DNA of 64,000 nt from Candidatus Levyibacteriota bacterium. Its GTDB lineage: Bacteria; Patescibacteriota; Microgenomatia; Levybacterales; UBA12049. This document shows, piece by piece, positions 4,599-54,824 of this stretch; within the stretch, counting starts at the first letter, position 1, and every line of letters begins with the position of its first letter. The position numbers and the translations under genes are program-made. The stretch lies in assembly GCA_016182235.1 (NCBI GenBank), contig JACOXT010000004.1, positions 28,537-92,536 of the forward strand, read 5' to 3'. The notes under the pieces were generated by a model that had not been told where the DNA came from, searched no databases, and saw only the letters and a list, made by a program, of their open reading frames with translations.

Positions 4599-5702
4599 AT
4601 GAAACTTAGTACATTAAAAACCATCCGGCAAAACTTCCTAAAAGAACTCCAAGATGCAAATATAGGCAGGAAGAATAGCCTTGCTTTTATTGTTAATGAA
4701 ATTCCCAAAATTCCTCTTGTAGAAAATGGGAAAAGATTTCAGGTTTTGGTTGTCGGAGGAAGTATTTGCAAAAAAGCAATTCTTGTTAAGAAAGATAATG
4801 AGCTTGAGGTTGTTAAGAATGAAACAGCTAAACAACCTTCTTTTAATAATGAATTAGTTTTTTTGGAATTTATAGAAAAGAATCTTGAAGACAACATTAA
4901 CATTTTGGCTTTAAATTTTGCTTATCCCCTAAAACCCATCTTTATAAATAAAAAGCTTGACGGAATCCTTATAAAAGGTTCTAAGGAAAATTCTTTTGGT
5001 AATCTTGTTGGCAGAAAGATCGGAGAGGAGATAGAAAAATATGTACTTCAAAAAAATGGCAAAAAAATAATTGTCTCTCTGGCAAACGATACTATCTGTC
5101 TTCTGCTTTCGGGATTAACAAAATTTTCATGGGATAATCTTGCCGCAGGAATTGTCGGAACAGGACTTAACTTTGCGATATTTAAAAACAAAAACAAATT
5201 GGTTAATTTGGAGTCTGCAAATTTTGATAAATTCCCAAAAACAAAGGAGACACAAATTATAGATAGAGAATCAAATAATCCCGGAGGTTGGCTTTTTGAA
5301 AAAGAAACAACAGGCGCATATCTTTATAAACATTTTAATATAATCCTAAAAGCAAAAAATCTCCCATTCTCGCCTATCAATTCGACGGAAGATCTAAATG
5401 CTTTATGCTCTAAAAATATTCCCAAGATTTCCAAAATTGCACAAGACCTTTTAAATCAATCCGCTCAATTGGTTGCTTGTCAAATAGCCGGAATAACTGC
5501 ATTCAAAAAACCCCACTTCGCTAAAGCTTCGAGGGGCAAGCAAAATATGGTTTTTGTTATGGAAGGAAGTTTGTTTTGGAAAGGAAATAATTATAAAAAA
5601 ATAGTCAAAGAAACTGTTAGAAAATTAGTACCAGAATATAAAGTTGAATTTGTAGAAATAAAACAAAGCGGTATAATGGGCGGCGCAAAACTAATATGTT
5701 AA
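4599..5702 (+). CDS. Hexokinase-family sugar kinase (actin-fold ATPase)
   Basis: Motifs LALNFAYPL, LANDTICLLLSG, GIVGTGLNFA and EGSLF resemble hexokinase_1/2 domains. It contains a GC-rich insert at 5511-5541. Confidence 0.7.
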   Translation: MKLSTLKTIRQNFLKELQDANIGRKNSLAFIVNEIPKIPLVENGKRFQVLVVGGSICKKAILVKKDNELEVVKNETAKQPSFNNELVFLEFIEKNLEDNINILALNFAYPLKPIFINKKLDGILIKGSKENSFGNLVGRKIGEEIEKYVLQKNGKKIIVSLANDTICLLLSGLTKFSWDNLAAGIVGTGLNFAIFKNKNKLVNLESANFDKFPKTKETQIIDRESNNPGGWLFEKETTGAYLYKHFNIILKAKNLPFSPINSTEDLNALCSKNIPKISKIAQDLLNQSAQLVACQIAGITAFKKPHFAKASRGKQNMVFVMEGSLFWKGNNYKKIVKETVRKLVPEYKVEFVEIKQSGIMGGAKLIC

Positions 5703-7478: not shown

Positions 7479-7817
7479 TTATTTTAGGCGATTTATGAGC
7501 CTTGCTTTTTCCAAAACTCCTCTTATCTGTAAATCAATTTTGTTATTGGTTTTATTTAGAATTTCTTTCTTTACTATAAAAAGCATATCTTGCCCGCTAA
7601 TTATATCTTTATTCAAGTCAATAAGAATTGATCTAAAAATTCTTTTGATTTTATTTCTCACAGTACTCCTTTTGTCAATTTTCTTTGAAACTACAATCCC
7701 AAACCTATTTACAATTAATCCGTTTCCTTTTACTTTTAGCACAAAAAAGGGGGTGGAAAAAAAATTGGAATTATAAAATCCTACCCCCCTAGGAAGACGG
7801 TTTTGTCTTTTAAACAT
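7479..7817 (-). CDS. rnpA: Ribonuclease P protein component
   Basis: 112 aa and basic, with an FKRQNRLPRG start and the family's typical KKxxxxAVxRNxxKR-like region (SKKIDKRSTVRNKIKR). It sits between rpmH and yidC. Confidence 0.85.
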   Translation of the reverse strand: MFKRQNRLPRGVGFYNSNFFSTPFFVLKVKGNGLIVNRFGIVVSKKIDKRSTVRNKIKRIFRSILIDLNKDIISGQDMLFIVKKEILNKTNNKIDLQIRGVLEKARLINRLK

Positions 7818-7827
7818 TTTGTCCTGC

Positions 7828-7962
7828 CTAAATGGACACCTTTCCCCTTCTTTTTAATCTTCTTCTTTTAAGAGTTTTTTGTCCCCCATGAGATCGCATT
7901 TTTACCAAAAAACCGTGCTTTCTTTTTCTTTTTACTTTTTTTAATTTTACAAATTTCTCCAT
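7828..7962 (-). CDS. rpmH: 50S ribosomal protein L34 (not in ORF track; too short)
   Basis: Manual translation gives MEKFVKLKKVKRKRKHGFLVKMRSHGGQKTLKRRRLKRRGKVSI (44 aa). This carries the L34 signature KRKRxHGF..RM....G..vL.RRR.KGR. Confidence 0.9.
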   Translation of the reverse strand: MEKFVKLKKVKRKRKHGFLVKMRSHGGQKTLKRRRLKRRGKVSI

Positions 7963-8075
7963 ATAAAAATTATAACAAATCCATAACGCCTTTTAAAGTG
8001 GCAAAAAAAGATATAGTCTTATCTACTTTATCCGTCTTGACAAAAAGTTATCCACATAGTTAAACTTCTTGCTAC
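7963..8075. promoter_or_regulatory. rpmH-dnaA divergent intergenic region with DnaA boxes (oriC/dnaA promoter candidate)
   Basis: A perfect TTATCCACA box lies at 8048-8056. Weaker boxes are TTATCTACT at 8019-8027 and TTATCCGTC at 8028-8036. Confidence 0.65.
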
Positions 8076-9437
8076 ATGGTGAATGAAGAAAACTCCATTT
8101 TTTGGAAAAAAATTTTAGGAGAAATAGAAACAGAAATATCCAAAGCCACGTATCTAACACTATTTAAGTCAACTGCGTTGTTGTCTTTGGAAAACGGTGT
8201 TGCTTCGATTGCCGCCCCTTCAACCATGATCATAGACCTTCTCCAGAAACGCTTTTACCAAACGATAAAGCGTACTGTGGATAAACATACCGGCTTTGAT
8301 ACGAAAATACTATTCGTCCCAAAGGTCATCCCCATCCCATCAGGACAGAATACGAAAACCCCAAAAGAAGAAGCTCCTCTTTTTGTACATATCGAGAAAA
8401 AACCAACCATGGTAGGACACCTTCCCGGAGTGCGTCCAGACTATACTTTTCAAACAATGGCTGTTTCCTCAAGCAACCAACTCGCTTATGTCTCAGCCAC
8501 AACGGTCGCAAAAAAAATAGGCAGCTCCTACAACCCTCTTTTTATGTACGGCCCTGTTGGCGTTGGAAAAACTCATCTGATGCAGGCAATTGCAAACGAG
8601 GTTTATAAAAACAATCCCGAAAAAAAAATAATTTACATTACAAGCGAGGGGTTTACCAATGAAGTGGTTGAGGCGATAAGAAACAACGACACGTCAAGAA
8701 TGAAAAGAAGATTTAGGAGTATTGATCTTTTGATTGTAGATGATGTTCAGTTCTTTGCCGGAAAAGAAAAGGTTCAGGAAGAGCTTTTCCACACCTTCAA
8801 CATCCTTGTTGACGCGGGCGCACAAATCGTCCTTTCATCTGATCGCCCGCCGATGGAAATAAAAAAACTGGAAAAAAGGCTTTCATCTCGATTCTCCGGC
8901 GGTCTTACTGTTGACATTGAAGCTCCGGATTTTGAACTTAGATCCGCAATTTTACTCATCAAGGCAAAAAAACACGGTGTTGATTTGCCAATAGATGTGG
9001 CTAAGAAAATTGCCGAAAAAACTAATGACTCAAGAGAGCTCGAGGGACTGCTTGTCAGGGCAATTACAATATCCAAAACAAATGGGATCAAGATAACCAC
9101 AGACACAATAGATAAGACCTTAGATGAGGGGGATGGAGAAAGACACCGCTTCTTTCGTCCGGATGACATCATAAGAAATATTTGTTCTTTCTACAACATC
9201 AAGCCTACCCTTATGAAGGGGCCAAAAAGAGAAGCTCGTCTCGTGAAGGTAAGACAAATCACAATGTATATTCTTAAAAAAGAACTGGCCCTTAGCTTTG
9301 TCGAAATAGGAAACATCCTGGGAGGAAGAGATCACACAACAATTATGCATGGCGTTACCAAAATAGAAGGACTTCTGTTGAATAATTCTTTTTCTGAGGA
9401 AATGCTGAGGATAAAGTCTTTATTAAGAAACGCGTGA
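8076..9437 (+). CDS. dnaA: Chromosomal replication initiator DnaA
   Basis: Walker A is GPVGVGKTHL, followed by LLIVDDVQFF, the sensor region and a C-terminal HTH (GGRDHTTIMHG). Confidence 0.95.
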   Translation: MVNEENSIFWKKILGEIETEISKATYLTLFKSTALLSLENGVASIAAPSTMIIDLLQKRFYQTIKRTVDKHTGFDTKILFVPKVIPIPSGQNTKTPKEEAPLFVHIEKKPTMVGHLPGVRPDYTFQTMAVSSSNQLAYVSATTVAKKIGSSYNPLFMYGPVGVGKTHLMQAIANEVYKNNPEKKIIYITSEGFTNEVVEAIRNNDTSRMKRRFRSIDLLIVDDVQFFAGKEKVQEELFHTFNILVDAGAQIVLSSDRPPMEIKKLEKRLSSRFSGGLTVDIEAPDFELRSAILLIKAKKHGVDLPIDVAKKIAEKTNDSRELEGLLVRAITISKTNGIKITTDTIDKTLDEGDGERHRFFRPDDIIRNICSFYNIKPTLMKGPKREARLVKVRQITMYILKKELALSFVEIGNILGGRDHTTIMHGVTKIEGLLLNNSFSEEMLRIKSLLRNA

Positions 9438-9579
9438 GAAAACTAACCGGCTCTTCTTATCTTGTTATTAACCACCTCTTCCACAAGATATCCACATTTT
9501 TTCCTTCTTTCAGCCTTGCTTTTTTCCACTTTTCCATATACACTACTACAACTACAAGATTATAAATATAAGTAAATAA
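9438..9579. promoter_or_regulatory. dnaA-dnaN intergenic region with DnaA-box-like sites and an AT-rich tract (alternative oriC candidate)
   Basis: ATATCCACA lies at 9488-9496 (1 mismatch) and a TTTTCCACT-like site near 9532. An AT-rich stretch precedes the dnaN start. Confidence 0.45.
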
Positions 9580-10722
9580 ATGAAAGCTTCCTTTCTTTTA
9601 CAAAACCTTTCTAGGAGAATATCTTTTGTTAATCATGCTGTTTCGGCAAAAAGCCAACTCCCAATTCTTCTTAATTTCCTAATCGAAGCAAAAAAAGGAA
9701 GGTTAATAATAAGCGCAACGGATCTGGAAATTGGTATAGTAGCAGAAGTTCCGGCAAAAATAGAAGAAGAGGGCAGCGTAACAATTCCGGCAAAAGCAAT
9801 TACAGAGCTAATATCGGTAGCCCCAATAGAGAAAATAACGCTCCAAACCAAACCCGAGGGGCTTTTTTTGACAGGAGAAAGAGTAAAGACAACTTTTCAG
9901 ACAATGCCCACAGATGAGTTTCCCAAGCTTTATGGAGACAAAGGTTCAGAGCTAATAAGGCTTAAAAGAAATACGATTGACAAAGAATTTTCAAGGGTTG
10001 TTTTTGCGGCAAGTCAAGACGCAGAAAGACCAGCCCTTTCTGGGGTTTTGATAAAAGAGGGAGAGTCAATGAGTAAAGAGGGGTTTTCTCTTGTTGCGAC
10101 CGATGGGTATAGGCTGTCTTTACAAAGGGAAGCTTTGGGAGGTACTAAAAAGAAAAAAACCACAGATGCCTCAATGATTGTGCCGTCCCGAGTTATTAGG
10201 GAGCTTATTTTAATGAATAAGGAGGCTTCGGAAGGGGGCGACATAGGCGTTTACGTACCGCAAGAAACCAACCAGGTGATATTTTCTCAAAACGACGTAA
10301 CCATTGTGGGAAGGCTTATTGAGGCGGAATTTCCTAATTTTGAAAAAATAATCCCACAAGATTATTCAACAAAAACCATCTTTGAGAAAGAAGCCCTGCA
10401 AAGAGCTGTTAAAGCAAGCTACGTGTTCGCACGGCAAACCGCAAACATAGTAAAGCTTTCGATCATGAAAGATAAGATAGTTGTTTCCGCCAATGCTCCT
10501 TCTTTCGGAAGTAGCGTTATGGAAGTGGACGCAAAAACAACCGGCGAGGAGAATGAGATCGCTTTTAGCGTGCGTTACCTTTTGGATTTTTTTTCAAATA
10601 TCGACGGGGAGGAAGTTTCATTTGAAATGACCGGCCCGTTAAATCCCGGAGTTTTTAAAATAGTAGGGGATGATACATACCTGCATCTAATAATGCCAAT
10701 TCGGATACAACAAGAGGCCTAG
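9580..10722 (+). CDS. dnaN: DNA polymerase III beta sliding clamp
   Basis: 380 aa, directly downstream of dnaA. It has three-domain clamp-like motifs (LVATDGYRLS, MPIRI C-terminus). Confidence 0.9.
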   Translation: MKASFLLQNLSRRISFVNHAVSAKSQLPILLNFLIEAKKGRLIISATDLEIGIVAEVPAKIEEEGSVTIPAKAITELISVAPIEKITLQTKPEGLFLTGERVKTTFQTMPTDEFPKLYGDKGSELIRLKRNTIDKEFSRVVFAASQDAERPALSGVLIKEGESMSKEGFSLVATDGYRLSLQREALGGTKKKKTTDASMIVPSRVIRELILMNKEASEGGDIGVYVPQETNQVIFSQNDVTIVGRLIEAEFPNFEKIIPQDYSTKTIFEKEALQRAVKASYVFARQTANIVKLSIMKDKIVVSANAPSFGSSVMEVDAKTTGEENEIAFSVRYLLDFFSNIDGEEVSFEMTGPLNPGVFKIVGDDTYLHLIMPIRIQQEA

Positions 10723-19936: not shown

Positions 19937-20785
19937 CTAAAGAGTGTGTGGCAAGTGGTGCTTGAAGGAGTTTTTGTTGGCATAATCAATAATTTTTTGC
20001 GCGTTTGGAAAACCAATTTTGGAAATTTCTGAAATAGTCATTTTTTTATCAAAATAAAGAAACAAAACATTGTCAGCCTCTTTGTATGAAAATCCAAATT
20101 CACCTTCATCGCTTTGTCCCTCCCAAAGCCCTGCGGTTGGAGGCTTGTCAATTATATTTTGTGGGATTTTAAGATATCTGGCAAGTTGATAAACTTGCGT
20201 CTTATATAGGTGCTGTATGGGTTCAAAATCAGACGCCTCATCTCCATGACGAGTGAAATATCCTAAAAGATGCTCAGATTTGTTTTCTGTTCCCGCGACA
20301 AGGCAATTGTGTTTCTTGGCAAGATCAAAAAGAATAATCATTCTTACACGAGCCATGATATTGCCGAGACGGATACGGTTCACCTCGGAGGAGTCATTTC
20401 GCAACACCTCGAAGGTGGCCGACTCGCCCGGCGAAGCCTTGGCGAAGCGGGGATGGACTCCTTCGAGGTGGGATTGGAACGCCCTCACCATAGGTTCAAT
20501 AGACAGTTCATAAATATTTTCTTTTGGAATCTTTGCTTCTTTTAAAATCGGCTCTATCTCATTAAAATAAGATTTAAAATAATAAAGATGTGCGACGAAA
20601 ATGTTTTGAGGGGCAAGAACTTCTCTCAAAAGATAAAAACTGGTTGTTGAGTCAATTCCGCCTGACATTCCTATAACAACCTTTTCAAAACCACTATCTT
20701 GCAATGTCTTTCTAATAAAGGAGGTAATTTTGTTTGTTTCGGCAAAAGGATTTATGTTAAGTAGATTGTTGTTCAATTGTTTCAT
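19937..20785 (-). CDS. nadE: NH3-dependent NAD+ synthetase
   Basis: PP-loop SGGIDS (VIGMSGGIDSTT) and the C-terminal family pattern. It carries an in-frame GC-rich palindromic insert at 20405-20470. Confidence 0.85.
   Translation of the reverse strand: MKQLNNNLLNINPFAETNKITSFIRKTLQDSGFEKVVIGMSGGIDSTTSFYLLREVLAPQNIFVAHLYYFKSYFNEIEPILKEAKIPKENIYELSIEPMVRAFQSHLEGVHPRFAKASPGESATFEVLRNDSSEVNRIRLGNIMARVRMIILFDLAKKHNCLVAGTENKSEHLLGYFTRHGDEASDFEPIQHLYKTQVYQLARYLKIPQNIIDKPPTAGLWEGQSDEGEFGFSYKEADNVLFLYFDKKMTISEISKIGFPNAQKIIDYANKNSFKHHLPHTL
20405..20470. repeat. GC-rich palindromic element, long form, inside nadE
   Basis: 11-bp inverted repeats: CACCTCGAAGG at 20405-20415 and CCTTCGAGGTG at 20460-20470. 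The core CCCGGCGAAGCCTTGGCGAAGCGGGG is at 20427-20452. GC content is far above the surroundings. Confidence 0.8.
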
Positions 20786-20864: not shown

Positions 20865-21524
20865 CTATAAGTATAGTTTCTTTTGTATTATATACTCTTC
20901 AATCTTTTCCGGCACGAGGACGGTTATTGACTTTCCTTCTTTAACTCTTTTTCGTACTTCAGTGGATGAGATGTTAATTGGAATGAAATGTAGCCAAATT
21001 AGCTTCCCACCTCGAAGGTGGCCGAATGGACTCCTTCGAGGTGAACGAATGTGTCTCGAAACTATTATTAATCCAAACTTTTCTATTATTTCTCTCCAGT
21101 TCTTCCATTTTTTAAAATCTTTTATATTATCAGAACCGATTATCCAAAAGAAATGGTCACTTGGAGATTGTTTTTGCAAAGTTTTTAGAGTGTCAATAGA
21201 ATAACTCGTTGATTGTTTTCTAAGTTCTAGATCAGAGACTTCTATGTCTCTTTCGTCATTCTGGCTTGTCCAGAATCTCTTATTGCCGCTAGGGATTCTG
21301 GAGTCGCTCCGCTCCCCAGAATGACGTTTATAAAGTTCATTTGCTAGTAATTTTGCCATTTCGAGTCTGTGGCGAGAGATTGACATTTTTTTAGCAAAAG
21401 GGTGAATTCTCGCAGGCATCAGTATTACTTTTTGGATTATTTGAGATTTCAAAAGACATCTGGCAATTGCTAAATGACCATTGTGCGGGGGATCAAAGCT
21501 GCTACCCAAAATAGCGGTGTTCAT
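20865..21524 (-). CDS. nadD: Nicotinate-nucleotide adenylyltransferase
   Basis: GSSFDPPHNGHLAIA (HxGH motif) and ISSTEVR (the ISST motif). It contains two in-frame palindromic inserts. Confidence 0.85.
   Translation of the reverse strand: MNTAILGSSFDPPHNGHLAIARCLLKSQIIQKVILMPARIHPFAKKMSISRHRLEMAKLLANELYKRHSGERSDSRIPSGNKRFWTSQNDERDIEVSDLELRKQSTSYSIDTLKTLQKQSPSDHFFWIIGSDNIKDFKKWKNWREIIEKFGLIIVSRHIRSPRRSPFGHLRGGKLIWLHFIPINISSTEVRKRVKEGKSITVLVPEKIEEYIIQKKLYL
21008..21043. repeat. GC-rich palindromic element, short form, inside nadD
   Basis: It has the same 11-bp arms as the nadE element (CACCTCGAAGG 21008-21018, CCTTCGAGGTG 21033-21043) with a 14-nt loop. Confidence 0.8.
21254..21326. repeat. 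Nested palindromic element (CGTCATTCTGG ... CCAGAATGACG) inside nadD
   Basis: The outer 11-bp inverted repeats are at 21254-21264 and 21316-21326. Inner sub-hairpins include CTGGCTTGTCCAG. It is translated in frame as HSGERSDSRIPSGNKRFWTSQNDE. Confidence 0.75.
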
Positions 21525-21583: not shown

Positions 21584-21646
21584 AATAGACGGTAGAAGAT
21601 GGAGGATAGAAGGTGGTATTTTGAAGATAGAAGATTGAGGATAGAC
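21584..21646. repeat. Purine-rich heptamer array (9 units), left arm flanking the four-helix-bundle ORF
   Basis: The units are AATAGAC GGTAGAA GATGGAG GATAGAA GGTGGTA TTTTGAA GATAGAA GATTGAG GATAGAC. Confidence 0.85.
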
Positions 21647-21648
21647 TA

Positions 21649-22011
21649 CTAAAAGGTTTTCCAGTTGTTTCGAAGATTAGTAAGTTTTCCTCCTAATAAC
21701 AGGTATCTATTGATAAGGTCGTTGCAAAAATTCTTTTCCCAAAAAACTAAATCTCTTGCCAAGCTGATATGGACTTCCATTTCATTACAAGATCCAATTG
21801 CTGAATCTAAATGCAGCTTGAATTGTTTATCAAATCTTCTTTTTGCCCAACCTTCTGCAATATTTGCAGGAACAGATTTAGAGGCTTTTCTTAACTGCAA
21901 GCCAAGGTCATTCCTTTCAAATAGGGGAAGTTTATTAACATTTCTATTAACTGTAAGAGCTAATTCGTAGGCTTCTTTATACACTTCCAAATCTCTAAAG
22001 CTCTTGATCAT
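21649..22011 (-). CDS. Four-helix-bundle protein (23S rRNA intervening-sequence protein family)
   Basis: 120 aa. FRDLEVYKEAYELALTV and ANIAEGWAKR motifs are typical of this family. Confidence 0.8.
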   Translation of the reverse strand: MIKSFRDLEVYKEAYELALTVNRNVNKLPLFERNDLGLQLRKASKSVPANIAEGWAKRRFDKQFKLHLDSAIGSCNEMEVHISLARDLVFWEKNFCNDLINRYLLLGGKLTNLRNNWKTF

Positions 22012-22026
22012 AAATAGAGTTTATAG

Positions 22027-22089
22027 TTTCTACCTTCCATCTTCAACCCTCAAAGTACTATCTTCTACCTTCTACTTTCTATCGTCTAA
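22027..22089. repeat. Pyrimidine-rich heptamer array (9 units), right arm, inverted relative to 21584-21646
   Basis: The units are TTTCTAC CTTCCAT CTTCAAC CCTCAAA GTACTAT CTTCTAC CTTCTAC TTTCTAT CGTCTAA. The reverse complement aligns unit by unit with the left arm at roughly 75% identity. Confidence 0.85.
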
Positions 22090-22202
22090 TCTCTGTCAGG
22101 TTCGCGGTCAGAAAAAAGTCAAGCTATTTAAGGAGTTTGGGAGTAGACTGCGGGCCATGATCCTTCGACAAGCTCAGGATCATACTGAACGGAGTTGAAC
22201 GT

Positions 22203-27209: not shown

Positions 27210-27228
27210 GCGGAGAGGGCGAGATTCG
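27210..27228 (-). repeat. Orphan 19-nt copy of a tRNA-Ser 3' end (T-loop to discriminator)
   Basis: The reverse complement CGAATCTCGCCCTCTCCGC is identical to 29347-29365 of tRNA-Ser(UGA). It lies 6 nt downstream of the GIY-YIG stop. Confidence 0.8.
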
Positions 27229-27234
27229 CCACGG

Positions 27235-27525
27235 TCATTCGACGTGGCGTCCCGTCGGATGACGGGACGGACCCCCTCTTTTTATAATATCACGGTACTG
27301 TTGTTTTAGCATACGTATACCCTCTGTAGATTTCAGATACTTTTCTCTTCTGATCGCATCACTCTTCAACAGATAAGCTTCATAGCCAATAAGCTTAACA
27401 GGTCTGGAACTTTTTGTTGATTTAACTTTACCGCTTTGATGATCTTTAATTCTTAGTCGTAAATCGTTTGACTGGCCTTTATAAATATTTCCACTTGATA
27501 ACATCAGGAAATAAACATAGTGCAT
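27235..27525 (-). CDS. GIY-YIG domain protein (UPF0213-like small nuclease)
   Basis: It has YVYFLMLSSGNIYKGQSNDLRLRIKDH (GIY...YxG) and an REKYLK motif. Its start codon is 2 nt from the tRNA-Ser(GGA) 3' end. Confidence 0.8.
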   Translation of the reverse strand: MHYVYFLMLSSGNIYKGQSNDLRLRIKDHQSGKVKSTKSSRPVKLIGYEAYLLKSDAIRREKYLKSTEGIRMLKQQYRDIIKRGGPSRHPTGRHVE

Positions 27526-28315: not shown

Positions 28316-28432
28316 GAGAGTAGAAAACAGAAAGTAAAAAGCTGAAGGTAGATTATTGGAAATGTTTAACTCCATCCTCTAGCTTCTATCATCAAAATAC
28401 TATCTTCTACCTTCCATCTTCCACCGTCTATT
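28316..28432. repeat. Heptamer-array hairpin without cargo (6 purine-rich units, 12-nt spacer, 9 pyrimidine-rich units)
   Basis: The left arm is GAGAGTA GAAAACA GAAAGTA AAAAGCT GAAGGTA GATTATT (28316-28357). The right arm is CTCCATC CTCTAGC TTCTATC ATCAAAA TACTATC TTCTACC TTCCATC TTCCACC GTCTATT (28370-28432). The right arm closely matches the reverse complement of 21584-21646. Confidence 0.85.
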
Positions 28433-52124: not shown

Positions 52125-54824
52125 TTAATAGCCAAAGACTTTACCCAGGGAGTTATTCCAGAGTAGTTCTAATAAGCTAATTGATGTTGAGACTCCTTGA
52201 GTTCCAGAAGGTGTCGGATAGGAATAAGATTCGGAAGGTGTACCATAGGAAGGAGTGCCGTATTCTGGTGTCCCGTAAGATGGAGTTCCATAACTTGGGG
52301 TTCCATAGCTTTCAGAAGGAGTGCCGTAGGATGGCGTACCATAAGTTGGAGTTCCATATGTTGGTGAGGGATAAGAGTAGCTGGTTCCTGGCGTTGGATA
52401 GGCATACCCTGTAGATGGAGAGGGATAACTAGTATCAGAGGGCGTTGGATAGTAATAGGTGTTTGGCGTTGGGTAATAGTATCCGCTTCCGGGTGTCGGG
52501 TAACCGTAAACCGGGCTTTGATCGCTTCCTCCTGGTGTTGGGTAACCGTATGCTCCGCCGGGTGTTGGGTAGTAATACGGAGTTTGGTATACAGTACTTG
52601 GTGTTGGATAATTTGATGTTGGCGAAGTATATCCACTACCTGGTGTGTAATACGGGCTGGTATATGTTCCACCGGGCGTGTAGTAGGAAGGAGAATAGTA
52701 AGAAGGCGTTAAGTAGTTTGGAGTTATGTAAGGCGTGTAATAGCTTGGGCTTGTATACGTTGATCCAGGAGGAGGTGTGTAATAAGTAGGCGATGAATAA
52801 GGGGTGTAGTAGGAAGGAGTTGGATAAAAGCCAGGTGTGTAATATGAAGGGGTAGGATAGCTTGCCGGCGAGTAATAGCTAGGAGACGTATATGTTGATC
52901 CTGGAGGAGGAGTGTTGTAGGAAGGAGAGGTATAAGCGATAGGGGATGTGTATGTTGGAGGCGTTGGGTATGTGCCTGGAGTATAGTAATTCGGTGTTGT
53001 ATAGCGAGGTGGCGGCGTATAGTATGAAGGCGTTGTATAGTTTGATCCTACAGGGGGAGTATAGTAAGTTGGAGTTGTATAAGTTGGAGGAGTGAAATAA
53101 ACAGGTGTAGTATAGCCGCCCCCGGTGTATGGCGTGTAATACTGAGGTGTTGTATATGGTGGGGGTGTTGAATAGGTCGGAGTAGTATAGTTGGAAGATA
53201 TACCACCTTGACCGGGAGTATAATAGTAAGGTGTTGAATATTGTGGAGGTGTGTAATAATAAGGAGTAGTATAGCCGCTTCCTACCGGAGGAGTATAATA
53301 AGTTGGACTTGCATAGCTTGGTGTTGGATACTCACCGGTTGGCGTAGTATAGTTGCCCCAAGGAGTATAGTAATTGGGGGTTGGGTAATTTGATCCCGAT
53401 GGAGGCGTTTGATAAGAAGGTGTTGAATACATGCCTGGCGTGTAGTATTGAGGCGTTGTATAAGTCGATCCTGTTGGCGGGGTATAATAAATGGGTGTTG
53501 TATAAAAACTGGTTGTTGGCGGAGTCGCATAAGCTATATCACTGGGCGGTGTATAATATGTTCCGGGAATATAAGATTCGGGGGGTCTTGGAGAATTTGG
53601 ACTAAAGCCTTCGCATCCTCCCGGATTGTCCGAACAATAATCATAACATGCTGCAGGAGATGTGCATCCACCCATTGACTCAATAGGCTCATGCGTTACT
53701 TGGTCTCCGGGGGTGTAGTAAAGATATGGATTGTAACTGTCGGTTGGTCTGGAAGTAGTAGCATCAAAGCCAGGGCAGACGCTTGCCCCATTCACAAGAT
53801 TATCCTTACAATAGTCATAACATTCTCCAGGAGTTGAACAATTTCCCATCTCCGGCCGAGATTCAAAATGAGCAGATAGAATATCTGTTGCGATACCTAT
53901 TGGTGGTTGATCTTGACAAGAAGAACCATTCCAGAACTTGTCAGCTCCTACGCAATTAATCGCTTCTTGTGTTTGAGTTGGTAGGGTGCAAACACCGCCC
54001 GGGCCGTGTTGCTCGCCATTTGGACAAACTAGAGAAGCATAAACTCCGTTTGAGCCGGGCGAATAACTTCGGCAATCTTGTGGGTTTTGATCGCAGTATG
54101 TTCTGCAGCTTTCTTCACTAGTGCATCCGCCAGGACCGCTAAACGATCCGCCATCTGTTGGGGGATAGGTGTTGCAAAGAGAGAAATTAGCTGGATCGGA
54201 ACAGAAGGCAGAACATGTCTCAGCACTCTGACAGCCCCCTGGTCCTTCGGTGGTATTACCTCCCAATAACCCGACTTGACTAGCAAAATCTGAACAAGAT
54301 TGGCTGTTAGCTGGATTGTCACAGAAGGTTGCACAAGAATCTAATGAGTCACAACCCAATACATCTTGGGCGATTTCCAGAAATTCAGGCTTGTCTGGAT
54401 TTTCTGTATATCCACCTGTGATTTCATTTCTTTTCGCCCAAGCATCGCAAGCTTCATGGTTTTCCGTCTTAGAACAGAAATCCAAACATGTATCTTTGGA
54501 GTCACAACCGAACTCGTCTTTTGCGCTTTCTAAAAGCTCACTGTCATATGTGACTGGATTATCTTTATAAAAACCATGCTCTTTGGCAAACGTACTGCAA
54601 CTGTTATAGTTGACAGGGTCTTCACAATAGTTGGTGCAAGTATCAATATCGTTGCATCCGCCTAGTTCTTCAATAGGAAACGAAAATTCGGAGGAAGGAT
54701 CTGGAGAAACCTCGGGTGAGGGAGTTTGGGAGAAAACATTAGTTGCTACGAAAAACAACAAGGCTAAAGTAATGCTTGTTATAGTCAAAAATTTAATTAA
54801 ATTAGGCCGTAAAATAGTTGTCAT
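52125..54824 (-). CDS. Secreted protein: about 7 four-Cys modules followed by a roughly 480-aa Tyr/Thr/Pro-rich repeat region
   Basis: It has an N-terminal signal/anchor. The modules fit GGCxSxExCxxYCxDPxNxxxC. A long YYTP / TPSYGTP low-complexity tract follows. Confidence 0.6.
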   Translation of the reverse strand: MTTILRPNLIKFLTITSITLALLFFVATNVFSQTPSPEVSPDPSSEFSFPIEELGGCNDIDTCTNYCEDPVNYNSCSTFAKEHGFYKDNPVTYDSELLESAKDEFGCDSKDTCLDFCSKTENHEACDAWAKRNEITGGYTENPDKPEFLEIAQDVLGCDSLDSCATFCDNPANSQSCSDFASQVGLLGGNTTEGPGGCQSAETCSAFCSDPANFSLCNTYPPTDGGSFSGPGGCTSEESCRTYCDQNPQDCRSYSPGSNGVYASLVCPNGEQHGPGGVCTLPTQTQEAINCVGADKFWNGSSCQDQPPIGIATDILSAHFESRPEMGNCSTPGECYDYCKDNLVNGASVCPGFDATTSRPTDSYNPYLYYTPGDQVTHEPIESMGGCTSPAACYDYCSDNPGGCEGFSPNSPRPPESYIPGTYYTPPSDIAYATPPTTSFYTTPIYYTPPTGSTYTTPQYYTPGMYSTPSYQTPPSGSNYPTPNYYTPWGNYTTPTGEYPTPSYASPTYYTPPVGSGYTTPYYYTPPQYSTPYYYTPGQGGISSNYTTPTYSTPPPYTTPQYYTPYTGGGYTTPVYFTPPTYTTPTYYTPPVGSNYTTPSYYTPPPRYTTPNYYTPGTYPTPPTYTSPIAYTSPSYNTPPPGSTYTSPSYYSPASYPTPSYYTPGFYPTPSYYTPYSSPTYYTPPPGSTYTSPSYYTPYITPNYLTPSYYSPSYYTPGGTYTSPYYTPGSGYTSPTSNYPTPSTVYQTPYYYPTPGGAYGYPTPGGSDQSPVYGYPTPGSGYYYPTPNTYYYPTPSDTSYPSPSTGYAYPTPGTSYSYPSPTYGTPTYGTPSYGTPSESYGTPSYGTPSYGTPEYGTPSYGTPSESYSYPTPSGTQGVSTSISLLELLWNNSLGKVFGY

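Follow-up and report, generated by a model that had tools for sequence, protein, structure and literature searches.

Repetitive extragenic palindromes (REPs) are imperfect palindromes of 20-40 bp with stems of 5-13 bp that fall into GTAG/CGTC-tagged superfamilies (PMC3733652, Di Nocera et al. 2013). There are REP units that lie within genes and REP units that sit inside larger palindromes; REP stems show complementary changes, and REPs are thought to be handled by REP-associated tyrosine transposases, or RAYTs (PMC3733652). Rickettsia palindromic elements (RPEs) are approximately 100-150 bp long, make up the sequence families RPE-1 to RPE-10, are specific to Rickettsia and are inserted in frame into many unrelated housekeeping genes of this host-dependent bacterium with a small genome (Ogata et al. 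2000, as outlined in PMC10969869). [quoted passage not shown] The small dispersed repeats (SDR, with the sequences SDR1-8) of heterocyst-forming cyanobacteria, of approximately 21-30 nt, are said to be nested in one another or in other repeats and tolerated in conserved genes. Here we describe a GC-rich unit of 30 bp that lies in frame within a hexokinase gene of a Candidatus Levyibacteriota bacterium. We read it, with a probability of about three in four, as a copy of a dispersed hairpin repeat that was inserted as a unit, and of which a diverged second copy lies in nadE. The window, to which all coordinates refer, is the whole stretch analysed, 64,000 nucleotides of contig JACOXT010000004.1 (positions 28,537 to 92,536).

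Bases 5511-5541 of the forward strand read CCCCACTTCGCTAAAGCTTCGAGGGGCAAGC. A preliminary description took them for a GC-rich element translated in frame inside the hexokinase, and this proved correct; the unit can be narrowed to exactly 30 bp, 5511-5540 (Table 1), and encodes PHFAKASRGK, residues 305-314 of the ORF (open reading frame) at 4599-5702. When the reverse complement of 20422-20452 is compared with 5511-5541, 24 of 31 positions match, the next best match in the window being 19/31. None of 300 windows simulated with a first-order Markov model gave a match better than 22/31 (P < 1/300), and the pair is therefore real and no compositional accident. A profile built from 88 copies recovers only these two copies in the window (nhmmer), 15 kb apart, whereas general repeat finding in the window did not link them because they are too short and too diverged. 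The GC content, described as far above background, reaches 60% in the hexokinase unit and 77% in that of nadE, while the window has 37.6%. Likewise, one short element does sit in frame in two unrelated enzymes, the nadE unit being translated as PRFAKASPGE on the nadE sense strand. The two copies occupy opposite strands of the window, as had been stated; relative to their genes, both lie on the sense strand and in the same codon phase.

Table 1. Positions of the 30-bp unit, its parts, its host genes and the surrounding 36-bp hairpin in the window.
Feature	Position	Strand	Evidence
Host gene, hexokinase-family sugar kinase; ORF intact, 367 aa	4599..5702	+	Pfam PF03727 (Hexokinase_2), E = 3.5e-16
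30-bp hairpin unit CCCCACTTCGCTAAAGCTTCGAGGGGCAAG in hexokinase, in frame	5511..5540	+	nhmmer 38 bits, homologue comparison
Hairpin 5′ arm CCCCAC, pairs with 5531-5536 at 5/6 positions	5511..5516	+	
Conserved 14-nt loop TTCGCTAAAGCTTC, consensus TTCGC-YAAR-GCTWC, inner GCY/RGC mini-stem	5517..5530	+	
Hairpin 3′ arm GAGGGG	5531..5536	+	
Conserved unpaired 4-nt tail CAAG; family forms CAAG, CAGG, TAAA	5537..5540	+	
Host gene nadE (NAD synthase), with an insertion hot spot in the loop between FQ..L and RIRLGNI	19937..20785	-	
Second 30-bp unit CCCCGCTTCGCCAAGGCTTCGCCGGGCGAG in nadE, in frame, nested in another hairpin element	20423..20452	-	nhmmer 27.7 bits
Left half CACCTCGAAGGAGTCCAT of the 36-bp hairpin split by the 30-mer	20453..20470	-	
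Right half TCGGCCACCTTCGAGGTG of the 36-bp hairpin split by the 30-mer	20405..20422	-	
Intact 36-bp hairpin CACCTCGAAGGAGTCCAT/TCGGCCACCTTCGAGGTG in nadD, an empty site in the same genome	21008..21043	-	

Comparison with homologues bears out the suggestion that the hexokinase stretch is an insertion. The window protein is 100% identical to a protein in a Candidatus Levybacteria metagenome-assembled genome (MAG). A homologue search returned 698 sequences, and among the best 120 of these 698 most are 356-357 aa long against 367 aa in the window. The ten residues PHFAKASRGK are missing in 29/29 aligned homologues, none of which, however distant, carries the same residues at this position. In this alignment (n = 30) the string KPHFAKASRG is private to the window protein, flanked by AGIT.FK and K..MVF.MEGS. 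In nucleotides, the window has TTC AAA AAA / CCCCACTTCGCTAAAGCTTCGAGGGGCAAG / CAA AAT ATG where the closest comparable gene, the L127 homologue, has TTT AAA AAA / TGT GAT TTA; the window hexokinase thus holds exactly 30 bp extra. In an AlphaFold2 model of the protein that is confident overall (mean predicted local distance difference test, pLDDT, 91.7) the insert lies between helix 277-307 and strand 315-321, and the lowest-scoring block (65) comprises residues 301-310. Three aligned homologues (P0005, P0019 and P0098) carry other, longer repeat-derived inserts in the same loop, which therefore appears insertion-tolerant. The insert is probably an extension of a surface loop and a neutral passenger.

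The nadE copy offers a second comparison of empty and filled sites. The nadE of contig L125, which shares 71% protein identity with that of the window, lacks the 30-mer and reads CAC CTC GAA GGA GTC CAT / TCG GCC ACC TTC GAG GTG. In the window the same 18+18 flanking bases are identical, with CCCCGCTTCGCCAAGGCTTCGCCGGGCGAG between them. Together the two flanks make up a 36-bp hairpin with an 11-bp stem (CACCTCGAAGG/CCTTCGAGGTG) and a 14-nt loop, which is found in two adjacent genes, nadE and nadD, in different reading frames; the intact nadD hairpin lies 600 bp from the nadE copy. Kinship of the hexokinase stretch with the core of the nadE insert, as first proposed, is thus upheld, with the refinement that the core is a separate 30-bp unit inside the 36-bp hairpin. 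In both comparisons the unit measures 30 bp, starts with CCCC and ends with RAG, and no target-site duplication was seen in either (hexokinase against L127; nadE against L125 and nadD). The inserted unit is thus discrete and its ends are sharp. A palindromic footprint, with arms derived from the target, was considered and rejected: the arms do not match the flanks of the empty sites. Approximately 3% of 30-bp copies, the nadE copy among them, sit in the loop of a larger palindrome; in controls the figure is 0.3%. The phosphoribosyl pyrophosphate (PRPP) synthetase gene of L090 has the same loop as the 36-bp hairpin and another outer stem, and the 36-bp hairpin may belong to a further family in which the loop is conserved and the stem varies.

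Other inserts were observed in the same genes. The nadD gene (20865-21524, minus strand) contains at 21252-21326 an insert of ~29 aa (..RHSGERSDSRIPSGNKRFWTSQNDE..) that is absent from the nadD of L125, where genes matching 23S_rRNA_IVP adjoin nadD. This insert is a second in-frame repeat family, and its peptide family (RHSGE..RFWTSQND) also fills the hexokinase hot spot in P0005, P0019 and P0098. A second hexokinase hot spot lies after STEELN (alignment columns 332-400), where P0021, P0028, P0031 and P0098 carry inserts of the HPEFISG...VKQVQHDM type; these form a third repeat-derived peptide family and are absent from the window hexokinase.

Beyond the window, an exact-pattern scan with CCCCNCTTCGCNAANGCTTCG of one genome per GTDB species recovered at least 119 loci, whose flanks are unrelated from locus to locus. 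Among the matches listed, hosts include many lineages of Patescibacteria (the candidate phyla radiation, or CPR), as well as Verrucomicrobia, Planctomycetes, Geobacterales, low-GC uncultured Gammaproteobacteria and a Nanoarchaeia MAG; the isolates among these listed matches include Geomonas paludis, Aquisalinus luteolus and Zeaxanthinibacter. Most genome-scan matches go on as N-GGGG-CAAG, outside the search pattern. BLAST against plasmids gave marginal matches only, in GC-rich replicons, and 5 viral contigs matched. In L036 and L093, ORFs of 310-385 aa contain the 30-mer amid tandem repeats of a heptamer (AAATCTC and AAAACTC), and these two copies may be an orthologous insertion common to both genomes.

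The family shares the architecture arm(6) - TTC GCY AA RGC TWC - arm′(6) - YAAR, with a C-rich 5′ arm and a G-rich 3′ arm. Stems were examined in loop-only searches, so that they were unselected. For loci from the genome scan, 21/30 loop-only matches have at least 5/6 Watson-Crick stem pairs, with differing stem sequences. A loop-only scan of metagenomes with CTTCGCYAARGCTTCG gave at least 120 loci, and 121 matches were analysed. At least 4/5 flanking positions are complementary in 87 of these 121 matches, compared with ~1.6% expected by chance; examples are TCCGC/GCGGA, CCCTC/GAGGG, CCAGC/GCTGG and CCATA/TATGG. Across the metagenome alignment standard pairs fill 87.1% of stem cells against 72.9% in shuffles (0/500 shuffles reach 87.1%), double-sided stem changes number 158 against 65 in shuffles, and controls slid along the alignment pair at 25-53%. 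The inner pair 12/15 covaries too (C-G 59, T-A 44). The variation of the stem with pairing kept is compensatory covariation. Base composition around the 30-bp copies is back at background level by -1 and +2, and conservation extends to the 4-nt tail. The family is much larger than the CCCC stem of the window, a minor subtype, would suggest. G.T and A.C mismatches, when counted against each other, gave no indication as to which strand folds. A pseudoknot between tail AAGC and loop GCTT was also considered and dropped, because GCTAC variants retain the same tail.

Copies occur in coding and in non-coding DNA. They are found in long ORFs in all six reading frames across the genome scan, and depending on frame they are read as PHFAKASRGK, PTSPRLRGA, PLRQGFxGQ, APRSLGEVG, PEALAKGG or PxKPWRSG. 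The genes hit are often housekeeping genes; besides hexokinase and nadE they encode a UvrD-like helicase, ArgRS, LeuRS, ValRS, TsaD, MiaB, DNA ligase and PRPP synthetase. Among the low-GC genome-scan copies listed, 32/68 lie inside ORFs of at least 150 aa. Since 30 is divisible by three, the reading frame is never shifted by an insertion. The nadE form, with CAAGG, contains no stop codon in any frame, and the form in the hexokinase, with TAAAG, has stops in 2/6; a gene invaded by the CAAGG form therefore gains ten residues and is not destroyed. Two other host proteins, aligned to solved structures, show gaps of 8 and 6 residues at the insert, the homologues being too distant to fix its length at exactly ten.

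How does this unit compare with the described systems? It resembles REPs in being a short imperfect palindrome with complementary stem changes and an unpaired conserved tail at one end. Loop variants with GCTAC also read GTAG on the opposite strand, but this tag lies inside the loop only, and at its end the unit carries CAAG, CAGG or TAAA (CTTG, CCTG or TTTA on the other strand), not GTAG or CGTC. Furthermore, it is the loop and not the stem that is conserved, and one loop is common to many phyla. REPs are mostly extragenic, abundant and often in dimers or clusters, whereas the unit is low in density and mostly single, with about half of its low-GC copies in long ORFs. No RAYT was found near any copy in 1.6 Mb of element-bearing loci. 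With RPEs it shares a palindromic form, in-frame presence in unrelated genes with the ORF preserved, and a peptide apparently tolerated at the protein surface; its 30 bp, its occurrence across phyla and its Levybacteria host separate the two by size and lineage. Like MITEs the unit is short, non-coding, dispersed and sometimes fused in frame to ORFs, but it measures 30 bp and shows no target-site duplication. SDRs are reportedly similar in size, nesting and presence in genes, and are said to differ in host range and sequence. The unit thus misses defining features of REPs, RPEs and MITEs.

Searches for an earlier description were negative. Rfam gave nothing relevant, whether the whole window was scanned at gathering thresholds or the surroundings of the site at E values up to 10; the only match, CRISPR-DR21, scored 12.1 bits against a threshold of 48, and no repeat-spacer array was seen. 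The motif and its peptides are absent from the supplements of the REP survey (PMC3733652), and no paper in the searchable literature, which is incomplete and leaves an earlier description possible, contains the DNA or peptide strings of the unit. In the same literature we found no relevant link of REPs or MITEs with CPR. That the unit stands for a class of mobile hairpin DNA not described before, ultra-small at 30 bp, present across phyla and with its identity in a 14-nt loop, is a tentative proposal, to which we give somewhat less than even odds.

On the likeliest reading, the unit is a mini-element, selfish or neutral, that a protein loop can tolerate. It would spread, or would once have spread, as a single-stranded hairpin whose conserved loop and tail are recognised by an enzyme acting in trans, for which the HUH transposases of the REP/RAYT type offer a parallel. 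A paired stem that changes around a constant loop and tail is what is expected of a single-stranded hairpin recognised by a protein, as with REPs and RAYT or with HUH Rep origins. We favour such trans-mobilisation because stem pairing is kept while loop and tail are constant, yet we consider this specific route less likely than not. A length divisible by three and a stop-free sequence would let the unit colonise essential genes in frame. The lack of RAYT and Y1 matches in the 1.6 Mb of element-bearing DNA, the low density and a tag that is neither GTAG nor CGTC argue against a classical REPtron arrangement; the mover may be an enzyme other than an adjacent RAYT, or the unit may arrive by a carrier.

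Several observations weigh against insertion of a dispersed, selfish unit. The two window copies differ at 6/30 positions and are therefore not recent copies of each other. There is approximately one extra copy per 100 kb, unlike the amplified REPs, and most copies are single. If the element were purely selfish, a loop near-invariant across phyla would be hard to explain, except with an enzyme or carrier of very broad host range. Profile and iterative searches with IS608 TnpA, ISDra2 TnpA and the E. coli RAYT found no IS200/IS605 or RAYT homologue in the 1.6 Mb of element-bearing loci, the window included, and no neighbouring transposase was seen at the clustered loci L050 and L016. DNA folding energies of single copies are unremarkable on both strands (z -0.1 to -1.6), so that the evidence for a hairpin is comparative and comes from covariation only. 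Movement itself has not been observed, and we infer the mode of spread. Lastly, among the matches listed, CCCC-stem copies in low-GC ORFs number 30 in sense against 2 in antisense orientation, which hints at a constraint at the level of RNA or translation that a neutral passenger would not predict.

This skew, together with the near-invariant loop and covarying stems, would be accommodated if the hairpin were a selected functional signal acting in cis, in RNA or DNA, that binds a conserved cellular factor and modulates mRNA stability, translational pausing, termination or recombination. Both window host genes point to the dnaA region (~8 kb) and hence face the replication fork, and both copies are still on the sense strand; with two cases only, this is an anecdote. 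Moreover, some intergenic copies are followed by T-runs in the manner of terminators (L006, L046 and L085). However, positions and genes are unrelated and all six frames are used, close orthologues do without a copy, the matches listed from the mixed-stem metagenome sample show no sense bias, and no Rfam family matches. An intrinsic terminator can be rejected for the hexokinase copy itself, which lies 160 bp inside the ORF and is followed by CAAAATATGG, with no T-run. We therefore regard a cis signal as unlikely.

Insertion of the 30-bp unit itself is also to be preferred over two readings that we consider very improbable. In the first, a larger composite insert like that in nadE was cut down by deletion, and the hexokinase stretch is what remains of it. 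The 30-mer of nadE and that of the L090 PRPP synthetase do lie inside a longer common context, with GGAGTCCAT on one side and YCGGCCACC on the other. Yet the 36-bp outer hairpin occurs without the 30-mer in L125 and in the window nadD, the flanks of over 100 copies of the 30-mer are unrelated, with background composition from -1 and +2, and the hexokinase flanks hold no trace of the outer element. In the second, selection for enzyme function keeps the ten residues as a protein module, for example as a basic surface patch, as the common frame and the similar peptides (P-x-F-A-K-A-S-x-G) of the two window copies might suggest. Across genomes, however, this DNA is translated in each of the six frames, into unrelated peptides, approximately half of the copies are outside long ORFs, and what is conserved is DNA pairing and not codons. 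Least probable of all is an artefact of assembly or sequencing, or a chance of composition: the motif is short and the window comes from a MAG, but besides the simulations the unit recurs in isolate and complete genomes from many laboratories, and copies in ORFs never break the frame and have compensating stems, which is unexpected for adapters or chimeras.

The window holds further repeats and landmarks. Related repeats of ~60 nt, rich in TCTTC/TACC, lie inverted at 21584-21645 and 22028-22102, flanking the small ORF at 21649-22011, and a third copy at 28371-28432 adjoins a tRNA cluster. A GC-rich double hairpin at 27227-27280 (CGCCACG..CGTGGCG, CCCGTC..GACGGG) forms the last codons of a 96-aa ORF (27235-27525, minus strand) and looks like another inserted palindromic element. 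At 7479-10722, rnpA, yidC, jag and rnhA (minus strand) adjoin dnaA (8076-9437, plus strand) and dnaN (9580-10722, plus strand), and the cumulative GC skew has its minimum near 9-11 kb, so that the window probably contains the origin of replication. A long block of degenerate tandem repeats (periods ~15, 33-42 and 75) occupies 52200-53510, at a raised GC of 45% and with the strongest skew in the window (0.28-0.44); it probably codes for a repetitive protein segment.

Strong pressure towards streamlining is assumed for CPR bacteria with their small genomes, yet in this one hexokinase, nadE and nadD contain GC-rich palindromic inserts of at least three families. If a 30-bp hairpin whose loop is conserved across phyla can indeed enter coding DNA without breaking it, such units would be a cheap and recurring source of variation in protein loops, and would confound gene calling, alignment and structure prediction in metagenomes. 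It would also point to an enzyme that acts on DNA or RNA structure in a very wide range of hosts, and the unit provides a precise sequence handle by which that enzyme may be found through genome co-occurrence. Should the unit be such a mobile class, it would supply loop insertions generally to proteins of CPR bacteria and other environmental lineages.
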